Translations under genes and position numbers: made by a program
Origin: a virus
Lineage: Duplodnaviria > Heunggongvirae > Uroviricota > Caudoviricetes
IMG/VR virus record: IMGVR_UViG_2778261570_000015
DNA: 9,616 bases
Reading direction: 5' to 3' (one strand)
Notes under the pieces: model-generated
The model's database searches: none
Seen by the model: the letters and a program-made list of their open reading frames with translations, nothing else
Told to the model about the DNA's origin: nothing
Shown: positions 629 to 9,288 of the stretch, one piece after another
Layout of the letters: every line of letters starts with the position of its first letter
How positions within the stretch are numbered: the first letter of the stretch is position 1

Positions 629-725
629 GAGCTTGCCGTTATGCGGCAACACGGTTTATGGTTATAAGGCACCTCATAAAACGGGTGCCGGGTTTCGCAG
701 CCCGGAAATGTACGAGGCGACACAT

Positions 726-747
726 GACGCGCCGAGCGTCTTTTTTT
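726..747 (+). terminator. Weak intrinsic terminator candidate (5-bp GC-rich stem, 5-nt loop, T7 tract)
   Basis: GACGC (726-730) pairs with GCGTC (736-740), followed by TTTTTTT (741-747). Short stem, so marginal. Confidence 0.35.
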
Positions 748-754
748 GTGCCGT

Positions 755-800
755 TAGCCAGACTCACACTTTTTTCAGTGATGCGGTTATAATCCGCGTC
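755..800 (+). promoter_or_regulatory. Sigma70-type promoter candidate for the primase operon; -10 TATAAT at 788-793 flanked by a GCGG/CCGC inverted repeat
   Basis: Perfect TATAAT hexamer at 788-793; the -35 region is poor (CACACT-like). GCGG (783-786) and CCGC (794-797) embrace the -10, an operator-like arrangement. First SD-bearing start codon downstream is at 950. Confidence 0.35.
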
Positions 801-949
801 GCTTGCAAAATTATGGTGGGCTGGACAGGGCAGCCGAAAGGCTGGCCGGTTTCCTTGTACGCCGGTACTGCGAACTCTGTTCAGTCCACCACCAGCGAGT
901 TTCGCAGCTCCGGTGGTGGGAAGAATTCCCAGTACAAGGAGGCTGCCAC

Positions 950-6836: not shown

Positions 6837-7298
6837 ATGGAACTAAAATTTATTGATAACCCTGTGCGATTACAGGCCTTTCTTAACGAGCCAGGCAATA
6901 CCGAAAATATTGTTGAGCCGGGGCACACGTACTACATCAAGCCTGATGCGGTATATCTCGGCATCTACGAAGGATTAGTGCTGGCTGGCGTTCATGAAGT
7001 GCGTAACTTCTGGCATAGCGTTGTTGAATGCCATGCGGTGTACGACCCCGGATTCCGTGGTGAATATGCACTGCAAGGACATCGATTATTCTGCAAATGG
7101 CTTCTCGAAAACTCACCATTCCTTAACAGCATCACTATGGTTCCTGACACCACGAAATACGGACGGGCAATTATCCGTTTGCTTGGCGCTACCCGTGTTG
7201 GTCACCTTGATGATGCTTATATCAGATGTGGTAAACCCGTCGGCGTAACGCTTTATCAGTTAACTCGGCAACAATATAAGGAATTCAGCGAATGTTAA
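6837..7298 (+). CDS. Hypothetical protein, 153 aa
   Basis: Track ORF; ATG 6837 with GGATGG upstream; stop overlaps the next start. No family recognised. Confidence 0.7.
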   Translation: MELKFIDNPVRLQAFLNEPGNTENIVEPGHTYYIKPDAVYLGIYEGLVLAGVHEVRNFWHSVVECHAVYDPGFRGEYALQGHRLFCKWLLENSPFLNSITMVPDTTKYGRAIIRLLGATRVGHLDDAYIRCGKPVGVTLYQLTRQQYKEFSEC

Positions 7299-7969
7299 TT
7301 ACCCATATAGCTCATAAACATCTCAATCGTGCCGTATACGAAAAAGGCGGTGATGGTGGTGCCTCTAAAGCTCAGGCGAAGGCCCAGCAGCAGGCAATTG
7401 ATTTGCAGCGCGAGCAGTGGAATACGGTGATGAATAATCTCAAGCCGTATGCAGAAGTCGGATTGCCTGCTTTACAACAACTACAAGGACTGATGACTCT
7501 GGAAGGGCAGAATAAAGCCGCGAATGATTTCTTTGGTTCTGGTTTATATAAAACACAGGCAGATCAGGCCCGTTATCAGAACCTTGTCTCAGCAGAAGCT
7601 ACCGGGGGGCTTGGCTCAACAGCTACCAGTAACCAGTTATCTTCCATTGCGCCCATGCTTTATAACAATTGGCTTAGTGGGCAAATGCAAAATTATGGAA
7701 ACCTGCTAAATGTCGGGATGAATGCGGCATCAGGGCAGGCAACGGCAGGGCAAAACTACGCCAATAATACCGGACAACTCTTGCAGGGGCTTGGCGCTAT
7801 TCGTGCAGGTCAGGCGCAGCAGCCATCCAGTCTTGCGCGTGGTATTGGTGGGGCAGCATCAGGCGCTTTAGCGGGTGCGCAACTTGGTTCCGTTGTTCCT
7901 GGAATAGGAACTGCGGCCGGCGCTATTGGTGGTGGGCTTATTGGTCTTGTTGGGGGGCTTGGATTCTAA
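7292..7969 (+). CDS. Ala/Gln/Gly-rich protein, 225 aa, with a glycine-zipper hydrophobic C-terminus; putative internal-virion/ejection-type protein
   Basis: Track ORF; start overlaps the previous stop; AAGGAA upstream. Low-complexity AQ-rich N-terminal part; C-terminus GIGTAAGAIGGGLIGLVGGLGF. Composition resembles podovirus internal core proteins; not verified by homology. Confidence 0.65.
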   Translation: MLITHIAHKHLNRAVYEKGGDGGASKAQAKAQQQAIDLQREQWNTVMNNLKPYAEVGLPALQQLQGLMTLEGQNKAANDFFGSGLYKTQADQARYQNLVSAEATGGLGSTATSNQLSSIAPMLYNNWLSGQMQNYGNLLNVGMNAASGQATAGQNYANNTGQLLQGLGAIRAGQAQQPSSLARGIGGAASGALAGAQLGSVVPGIGTAAGAIGGGLIGLVGGLGF

Positions 7970-9288
7970 TGGCGACATGGCAACTTGGCGGGCTGCCTAG
8001 CATGGCACCGCAAAATGATAATGCTCCTCGTTCTTCCGTTCCTCAGCCTGTGCAGTATCAGCAGCAGCCAAACGTAGGTTTAATGGCGCTACAGGGGCTA
8101 AGAGGCGTTGCTGAGATTAATCAGCAGGCGCAAATTTCCCAGCAGCTAAAAGAATATCAGGCACGGTTGGGTAGTGCGGTAGCTAATAATGATCGTGTTG
8201 GCGTGCAGAAGTTAATGGCCCAGTATCCCCAGTTTATGGCTGATTCTCAAAAACAGATGGGATTCATTGATGCTGAGCAAAATCGGCAGACCGCTGACGC
8301 TGCCATGAATCTGCGTCTTGCGTCACAAACTGGAGATCCACTGACCATGCAGAAGGCCATTCAGCAGGCAAATCCAGTATTACAGCGATTTGGTCTTCCT
8401 GCTGAAGAGGTTTATCAGTCTTGGCAGAATGACCCACAGGAATTCAACAGAATCACTGACCTCATCCACCTCCATGCTGATCCAAATAGTTACTTTAGTG
8501 TTCAAGAGAAGCAGCAAGGGCAGAGTATTGCACAGCAGAACGCAGATACATCTGCATATAATGCTCAGGTTAATGCGGAGCAGGGTAATCGGCGGCTCGA
8601 TATGGAGCAGTTCAAAGTCCTATCCGATAACCAACTACGCACGAGAGAAATGGTTCTGAAAGCACGACTTGGACGTGCTCAAAATGACATCGAGAGAGAC
8701 AAGCTCAATGCTGAACTGAGCAAGGTACAGCAGGCGAAAGTGGAGAAGATGAACGATAAAATTAATACTGTTGCAGGTAATATCGACTCCTTGAACTCTG
8801 CGCTTGAAGTGGGTCATGAACTGGCGGGAATTGTAGGGAAACATCCTTCGGCCGTTACCCGTTCGCAGAACTATAACCCCCTGACGCTGGGGTTTGGATT
8901 CCTCCCTGATGTAGCAGAAGACACACGAAGCCTACGCGCCAAAGCTGATGAATACAACCTAAAGGTTATTCTGCCTAGCCTAAAAGGTACTTTTGGCTCT
9001 AACCCAACCGAAGGGGAAAGGGCTGCCCTTATGCAATCTCAAAATGGCATTAAGTCAGCAACCAGCAATGAGGCATTTTTGCGAGAGTTGAATAAAGCGC
9101 AGGACGTAATTATTCGAATGCAGAAACGACAGATTGCCGGGCTCGGTATTCCTGTAACCAAATCTAAGGACGAAGAAACTGATACCAAAATGCTGTTGCA
9201 GGATCCTTCACTGGTTAAGGATTATGTGACCGCACATGGCTATCTGCCGGAAAGTTACTATCAGGCAAAACTTAAGGGATGGCAATGA
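7969..9288 (+). CDS. Gln/Ala-rich protein, 439 aa; putative internal-virion/ejection-type protein
   Basis: Track ORF; TAATG overlap with the previous gene and TGA overlap with the next. Q/A-rich, coiled-coil-like composition. Confidence 0.7.
   Translation: MATWQLGGLPSMAPQNDNAPRSSVPQPVQYQQQPNVGLMALQGLRGVAEINQQAQISQQLKEYQARLGSAVANNDRVGVQKLMAQYPQFMADSQKQMGFIDAEQNRQTADAAMNLRLASQTGDPLTMQKAIQQANPVLQRFGLPAEEVYQSWQNDPQEFNRITDLIHLHADPNSYFSVQEKQQGQSIAQQNADTSAYNAQVNAEQGNRRLDMEQFKVLSDNQLRTREMVLKARLGRAQNDIERDKLNAELSKVQQAKVEKMNDKINTVAGNIDSLNSALEVGHELAGIVGKHPSAVTRSQNYNPLTLGFGFLPDVAEDTRSLRAKADEYNLKVILPSLKGTFGSNPTEGERAALMQSQNGIKSATSNEAFLRELNKAQDVIIRMQKRQIAGLGIPVTKSKDEETDTKMLLQDPSLVKDYVTAHGYLPESYYQAKLKGWQ

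Follow-up and report, generated by a model that had tools for sequence, protein, structure and literature searches.

A conserved leader hairpin with a candidate -10 hexamer in its loop, between the IsrK and C4 RNAs of a P4-like island

We describe here a stem-loop in the RNA immunity leader of a P4-like island (positions 777-803, + strand, of the window, the whole 9,616-nucleotide stretch of DNA under analysis) that we regard, with high confidence, as a real RNA element. The loop of the hairpin contains the consensus -10 hexamer TATAAT (788-793, + strand), which is a candidate internal promoter of the precursor of the C4 immunity RNA with a predicted start at ~800-801. We would best explain the whole as a conserved hairpin of the leader that offers, in its loop, an optional promoter from which the immunity RNA could be made, an account to which we give about an even chance. 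A first-pass annotation of the same DNA had taken the hexamer to be the -10 element of an early promoter that is occluded by a protein bound to the flanking inverted repeat. That interpretation is partly supported by the present analysis.

The immunity leader and its genomic setting

The leader belongs to an integrative island inserted at tRNA-Thr and adjoining proA, in agreement with the earlier description of this DNA as a lysogenic element. The gene content of the island comprises an integrase, AlpA, AntA/B, DUF4222, an 'ash' ORF, icd, small ORFs, a TOPRIM/DUF927 primase-helicase and P22-type ejection proteins. The P22-type DNA-ejection genes (Inj_translocase at 7969-9288 and DUF2824 at 6837-7298) are unusual cargo for a P4-like satellite island. 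The leader itself (633-942) is a phage P4-type RNA immunity system, organized in the order PLE-like promoter (633-662), IsrK/seqA with a leaky terminator (669-746), spacer, C4/CI (809-896), targets together with the icd ribosome-binding site (899-942), and replication genes. It is matched in ~870 of 5426 complete E. coli genomes. We found no phage record that carries the window allele and, among the carriers of that allele, no model strain with a start-site map. Compared with window positions 640-775, the E. coli islands L002 and L003 show ~86% identity as far as ~775, beyond which, over C4 and its targets, the similarity falls off steeply. The break near 775 has the look of a mosaic boundary and would fit immunity cassettes that are exchanged together with the hairpin and the -10 hexamer.

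Upstream of isrK lies a candidate promoter that is homologous to the early promoter PLE of P4 (633-662, + strand), with a -35 element TTGCCG (633-638) separated by 18 nt from a -10 element TATGGT (657-662). The -10 ends 6 nt ahead of the first base of isrK and the predicted start is at ~669. The arrangement in P4, TTGCCT-18-TATAGT located 6-7 nt before the P4 isrK/seqA match, corresponds to the TTGCCG-18-TATGGT of the window, and the TTGnnn and TATnnT motifs are kept across alleles while the bases between them vary. As judged by sequence, the early promoter homologue is this putative promoter at 633-662 and not the TATAAT at 788, which had earlier been given that name. The -35 of this PLE-like promoter is overlapped by a palindrome, TTGCCGTTATGCGGCAA (633-649, - strand), which, with the T-run that follows it on the - strand, forms a terminator-like site for antisense transcription.

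The first RNA of the leader is an IsrK, or P4 seqA-type, sRNA (669-746, + strand; Rfam RF01394, 69 bits against a gathering score of 50). It ends in an intrinsic terminator, identified in a terminator scan and composed of a hairpin and T-run (726-747, + strand), and this is the terminator-like hairpin that had been noticed upstream of the hexamer. The second RNA is a C4, or P4 CI-type, antisense immunity RNA (809-896, + strand; Rfam RF01695, 81.1 bits against a gathering score of 45). Two sites on the + strand of IsrK are complementary to C4: an a1-like site, TTTCGCAG (693-700), matches C4 868-874, and a b1-like site, GTACGAGG (710-717), matches C4 852-860. There is in addition a weak c4-a1b1 Rfam match at 656-708. 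The corresponding parts of C4 (both + strand) are the loop b', TCCTTGTAC (852-860), and a' (868-874), the latter having two complements, 901-907 and the IsrK loop at 694-700. Two further + strand targets, equivalent to P4 seqC and to P1 a2 and b2, lie downstream of C4. The first, TTTCGCAGC (899-907), pairs with a' as an inverted repeat. The second, GTACAAGGA (932-940), is complementary to b' (852-860) at 9 of 9 positions. This second target covers the Shine-Dalgarno sequence AAGGAGG (936-942) of an Icd/Kil-like ORF of 64 aa (950-1144, + strand), annotated in RefSeq as 'host cell division inhibitor Icd-like protein' and with no Pfam match, which would be the first gene whose translation is blocked by the C4 RNA.

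P4-type immunity is exerted by the antisense RNA C4/CI acting after initiation, and no protein repressor is needed. The immunity region of the window codes only for RNAs and for Icd-like and small ORFs; a cognate repressor gene was not found there, and the AlpA gene sits elsewhere in the island. In one related locus (L043, ~213-303) an IS1 end lies within isrK, such that the upstream promoter and most of IsrK are gone and the terminator, TATAAT hairpin and C4 are intact.

The spacer stem-loop

The spacer module between the two RNAs (748-812, + strand) is 65 nt long, the gap between the IsrK and C4 Rfam matches being ~62 nt. Alignment and per-column diversity divide it into a CAC(C) motif (765-768), a T-run (770-775), the hairpin and an A-rich tail (807-810), all on the + strand. 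A comparison of this spacer with the curated Rfam families (positions 600-1000) returned only isrK, C4 and c4-a1b1 at E-values up to 1. The sequence at 781-799 is ATGCGGTTATAATCCGCGT, in which TATAAT (788-793) stands between GCGG (783-786) and CCGC (794-797) exactly as the first-pass annotation had it. The repeat is longer than was then noticed, however, and 781-799 forms only the upper part of a stem-loop extending over 777-803 (+ strand). In this structure the 5' arm AGTGATGCGG (777-786) pairs with the 3' arm CCGCGTCGCT (794-803) through 10 pairs, two of them G-U, to enclose the 7-nt loop TTATAAT (787-793). The + strand RNA folds with -16.0 kcal/mol (z = -4.1, with none of 200 shuffled sequences as stable) as against only -9.5 kcal/mol for the - strand, and the hairpin is retained in the fold of the entire read-through RNA (669-960).

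Other assignments for elements of the spacer were considered and set aside. An intrinsic terminator was rejected on either strand, as on both strands the U-run precedes the hairpin and an A-run follows it. A pseudoknot between the loop and the tail (AUAAU 789-793 with AUUAU 810-814) is lost in those alleles in which the tail ends CAATGG or GTAATGG. A P2/P4 late-promoter dyad (TGT-N12-ACA, spacer columns 2-19) is present in the consensus and degenerate in the window (TGC...TCA); it is also centred at -42.5 instead of -55, and was dropped. Sigma-dependent pausing at +120 from the upstream start was judged implausible.

The comparative evidence comes from a sample of 234 loci holding the IsrK terminator, taken from viral and metagenome contigs. 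These contain 92 distinct spacers, measured from the terminator to the 5' end of C4, and the dominant length class is 65 nt, as in the window. Spacers of this class follow a common plan of ~22 nt up to CAC(C), a T-run, a stem of 7-10 bp with a loop of 7-8 nt, and an A-rich tail that runs into ATGGTGG, the start of C4. The diversity of the CAC(C) columns (765-768) is 0.0-0.14 and that of the T-run (770-775) is 0.0-0.23 in 5 of its 6 columns, values which are both below the 0.26 of the hexamer; in an RNAalifold analysis the CAC could pair with GUG at the 5' end of C4 and the T-run with the A-rich tail.

We examined covariation in a gapless alignment of the 70 distinct 65-nt spacers. Across these spacers 81.4% of helix cells are paired, compared with 71.2% in shuffled alignments (none of 500 reaching the observed value), and sliding the 3' partner out of register drops pairing to 32-52%. 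Changes on both sides are found in 9 of the 10 pairs and the covariation score is 0.376 vs 0.201. Cells that are not Watson-Crick pairs are G-U in 127 cases vs A-C in 15, an asymmetry that is expected of an RNA helix and is meaningless for double-stranded DNA. In 70 of 90 alleles it is the + strand that gives the more stable of the two folds. The arm sequences themselves differ at nearly every position between alleles of otherwise similar islands, with pairing kept. This combination of drifting arms with maintained pairing, the great excess of G-U over A-C and the bias to the + strand argues for an RNA helix on the + strand and not for an operator. Since it is kept by compensatory changes that tolerate G-U on the + strand, the helix acts as RNA, within transcripts initiated upstream that continue past the IsrK terminator.

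The hairpin extends beyond the 65-nt class. It occurs at the same place in the 51- and 53-nt spacers, with covarying tops GCGG/CCGC, GTGG/CCAC and ACGG/CCGT, and these two classes are mostly without a -10-like hexamer. By contrast, the near-identical sister islands L003 and L035, in which the flanking genes are alike, have a spacer of only ~24 nt with no hairpin, and P1 and the Stx phages are likewise short here and lack the hairpin/-10 module. The 65-nt spacer module is present only in a subclass of these leaders. Matches of a 14-base hairpin pattern to viral sequences were mostly due to chance, and after filtering of the viral matches no hairpin-C4 module without an isrK terminator was found, save for one variant terminator and one contig end. 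An isrK 18-mer compared with 596 Gb of genome contigs proved too short a pattern, giving mostly chance matches in unrelated phyla.

The loop hexamer and competing explanations

The TATAAT hexamer is located ~20 nt upstream of the C4 RNA gene, a position that makes a promoter plausible. The loop contains exactly TATAAT in 48 of the 70 distinct 65-nt alleles, and it does so across the stem families GCGG/CCGC, TTGG/CCAG, ACGG/CCGT, ATGG/CCAT or CCGT, and CTGG/TCAG. In column diversity the hexamer, at 0.26, lies below the stem arms (0.39-0.40), the 3' flank (0.42) and the base that immediately precedes it (0.65). Three alleles change the hexamer at position 4 only (TATTAT, TATCAT and TATGAT), keeping A2 and T6; position 4 is the least critical position of a -10 element. 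In the frame that is open across the spacer the hexamer is read gtT-ATA-ATc, and the rare codon ATA (Ile) hardly varies within an otherwise unconserved protein sequence, which points to a constraint on the nucleotides and not on the amino acids. Such a nucleotide-level constraint would resemble that acting on a -10 element. Other loops observed include TTCAAAA (the L052 type, which with 29 copies is the commonest sampled allele), TGTCATT, CGTTACT and CTATAGC.

The remaining elements of a promoter are harder to discern. At the 17-nt spacing the -35 position is occupied by CACACT (765-770), which matches at 2 of 6 positions and is CACCCT in other alleles; the other candidates, TCACAC (764-769) and CTCACA at a 19-nt spacing, are unacceptable. 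An extended -10 TGn is absent, the hexamer being preceded by GGT, and a scan for consensus promoters made no call here. The proposal that the hexamer belongs to a promoter thus stands as far as a consensus -10 that is more conserved than its surroundings, and falters on the missing -35 and TGn and on the lack of the hexamer in common alleles. Weighing these features of the sequence, we are evenly divided over whether the hexamer would be an active promoter. No internal promoter is described for P4, P1 or IsrK systems in the literature that was searchable here, the key P4 papers aside, and for P4 we know of none that has been described.

As DNA, the loop hexamer would be the -10 of a weak, constitutive sigma-70 promoter that has no -35 and starts at ~800-801. 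Transcripts from this internal start would be C4 precursors with a leader of ~10 nt, to be trimmed by RNase P. Trimming by RNase P is known for P1 C4 and P4 CI. An internal promoter would supply immunity RNA independently both of the upstream promoter and of the decoy IsrK, which has the target sequences of the mRNA and can titrate C4, and C4 made without IsrK from a promoter of its own would shift the IsrK:C4 balance towards repression and immunity. The hairpin, for its part, probably insulates or stabilizes the processed read-through RNA. Its specific role is a guess: it may serve as a 3' exonuclease stop for the IsrK-spacer fragment after RNase P cleavage or, alternatively, may insulate the folding of C4. 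No repressor protein would take part, and control would be exerted after initiation through the pairing of C4 with 899-907 and 932-940.

There is a substantial, if minority, chance that the element functions only as RNA, in processing, stability or the insulation of folding between IsrK and C4, and that TATAAT is simply an incidental A/U-rich loop. The strong strand-specific covariation indicates transcription from an upstream start and selection at the level of RNA, and the hexamer stands without a -35 or TGn and is dispensed with in many functional alleles and in whole spacer classes. Moreover, the isrK promoter alone suffices for the C4-like RNA of Gifsy-1, so that an internal promoter is not indispensable for C4 and is at most an optional addition. 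What an incidental loop explains poorly is that 48 of 70 alleles hold to the exact consensus against a background of drifting stem and flanks, and that hexamer variation is confined, in three cases, to position 4 with A2 and T6 intact. Nor was an RNA partner for UAUAAU found, as the pairing with AUUAU (810-814) is not kept across alleles.

It is highly improbable that, in line with the first-pass annotation, a repressor, here taken to be dimeric and island-encoded, binds the inverted repeat and so occludes the -10 of the early promoter. The geometry is suitable, with the -10 centred in the dyad, the island encodes DNA-binding proteins (AlpA/Vis-like, for example), and P1 has a C1 operator at its c4 promoter, though there both are located upstream of a1/b1. 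Yet between alleles of similar islands the GCGG/CCGC arms are not conserved in sequence but only in pairing, their mismatches are G-T and not A-C (127 vs 15), and the fold is favored on the + strand in 70 of 90 alleles. The dyad also occurs with loops that are not promoters, the homologue of the early promoter is elsewhere (633-662), and P4-type immunity can dispense with a protein repressor.

The hexamer also lies within a long open reading frame. This ORF of 355 aa (288-1355, + strand, from the ORF list), designated 'ash family protein', begins upstream of the PLE-like promoter and spans isrK, the spacer, C4 and icd in the manner of P4 eta, with TATAAT in frame as Val-Ile-Ile. Its Pfam match to Phage_ASH (PF10554) covers residues 124-232, corresponding to nt 657-984, that is, isrK, spacer and C4. 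Because the match spans exactly two RNA genes and the spacer between them, the family profile is a translation of two Rfam RNA genes, and caution is warranted over Pfam 'Ash' and RefSeq 'ash family protein' calls. The 'Ash' ORF may still be a real eta-like ORF. One frame is open from before the terminator to past the icd ATG in 84 of 84 distinct loci, and in 108 of 108 loci in a second count, and the lengths of the spacer classes (26, 53, 65, 71, 98 and 107 nt) are separated by multiples of three. The open frame is that of icd in about half of the loci, as in P4 eta/kil, and in loci of the window type it is +1 relative to icd and joins the next gene (ATG 1138). Translation of P4 eta from the late promoter reportedly makes transcripts insensitive to immunity.

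We attach very little weight to the idea that this overlapping eta/Ash-like ORF fixes the hexamer through a requirement for Val/Gly-Ile-Ile. A frame that is always open, spacer lengths that change in steps of three, and hexamer variants TATTAT and TATCAT that are synonymous for Ile would all suit it. But the spacer peptides differ between alleles (DAVIIRVA, GRWCIIQR, RFGVIPYL, RVVVQNRS), the rare ATA is nearly invariant although ATT or ATC would be the expected codons, and the changes in the stem compensate pairing and are not synonymous. A more elaborate possibility, which we put forward only tentatively and consider rather unlikely, is that the same 27 nt carry three codes: a DNA -10 from which immunity RNA is made independently of the decoy IsrK, a selected RNA stem-loop that influences how the IsrK and C4 precursors are processed or stabilized in read-through transcripts, and an in-frame stretch of the eta-like ORF that overrides immunity when translated from an upstream promoter. 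On this reading, whether the cassette is present would tune how tightly different P4-like satellites stay silent.

Viewed by itself, the single sequence is not beyond chance, since the window contains 4 TATAAT hexamers where 3.9 are expected and a 4-bp inverted repeat is trivial. That the element is nevertheless an ordinary, functionless TATAAT beside a short GC repeat, with arms of a common length, is refuted by the comparative data (covariation across 70 alleles and a conserved hexamer), and the fold z-score of -4.1 likewise speaks against it, so that this explanation retains almost no probability.

Significance and comparison with known immunity systems

Satellites of the P4 kind, and phages that carry IsrK/C4 modules, abound in enterobacteria. 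Lysogeny in them is switched by the balance of two RNAs, the decoy IsrK/seqA and the repressor RNA C4/CI, and a single promoter had been assumed for the latter. If the preferred reading of a leader hairpin with an internal promoter is true, an optional cassette gives the repressor RNA alone a second promoter, and the output of IsrK would cease to be tied to that of C4. Such a cassette could also account for islands that are otherwise identical and yet differ in inducibility. The RNA immunity of P4, P1 and Gifsy-1 is already known and the window does not contain a new kind of system. What is new is the spacer stem-loop with its embedded -10, which has no Rfam match and no description in the searchable literature. 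Its relevance is chiefly to those working on satellite and prophage immunity.

The window dyad resembles operators that overlap a -10 element, such as the P1 C1 operator Op51 and those of lambdoid phages, in being centred on the -10 hexamer. It differs from them in that it is unconserved in sequence, tolerates G-T but not A-C, persists where the -10 is lacking, and has no cognate repressor. The immI region of P1 and P7 is similar to the window in that an antisense C4 is processed from the leader of its own operon, has targets on both sides, and is followed by icd as the first ORF. In P1, however, the promoters P51a and P51b and the C1 operator Op51 are all located upstream of a1/b1, and only ~26 nt separate the terminator-like hairpin from c4, a gap containing neither the hairpin nor a -10.

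The isrK - orf45 (STnc1160) - anrP locus of Gifsy-1 (Hershko-Shalev et al. 2016; PMC4825925) likewise has an IsrK with a leaky terminator followed by a C4-like RNA that is complementary to IsrK, and differs in that the downstream gene is an antirepressor. In that system the target of the short IsrK is the read-through RNA, downstream transcription without the isrK promoter amounts to 3 Miller units vs 280, and deletion of the isrK promoter abolishes the C4-like RNA STnc1160 (PMC4825925). A stable processed species, 'isrK-orf45'', has also been reported there (PMC4825925).

The closest parallels are to P4, in which the Rfam matches occur in the same order as in the window (isrK at 8692-8615 and C4 at 8507-8420), the upstream RNA being seqA and the C4 homologue CI. 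P4 shares with the window the promoter layout upstream of seqA, that of PLE in P4 and of a candidate promoter in the window, a terminator of the same type after seqA, an Icd/Kil-like first ORF with its ribosome-binding site inside the downstream target, and a long ORF that begins ahead of the early promoter and continues across the leader; an integrase, AlpA/Vis and a primase-helicase in the window's island extend the likeness. As for differences, the long ORF of the window is in the +1 frame and not in the icd frame, its replication protein is TOPRIM+DUF927 and not P4 alpha, and the P4 spacer is 107 nt long and forms a different, longer stem-loop without TATAAT. That P4 spacer (L270 8614-8508, - strand) contains, within its long stem-loop fold, a partial duplicate of the 5' end of CI, CAGATTATGGTGTGGTG. 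The region between seqA and CI seems to be especially prone to structured insertions.
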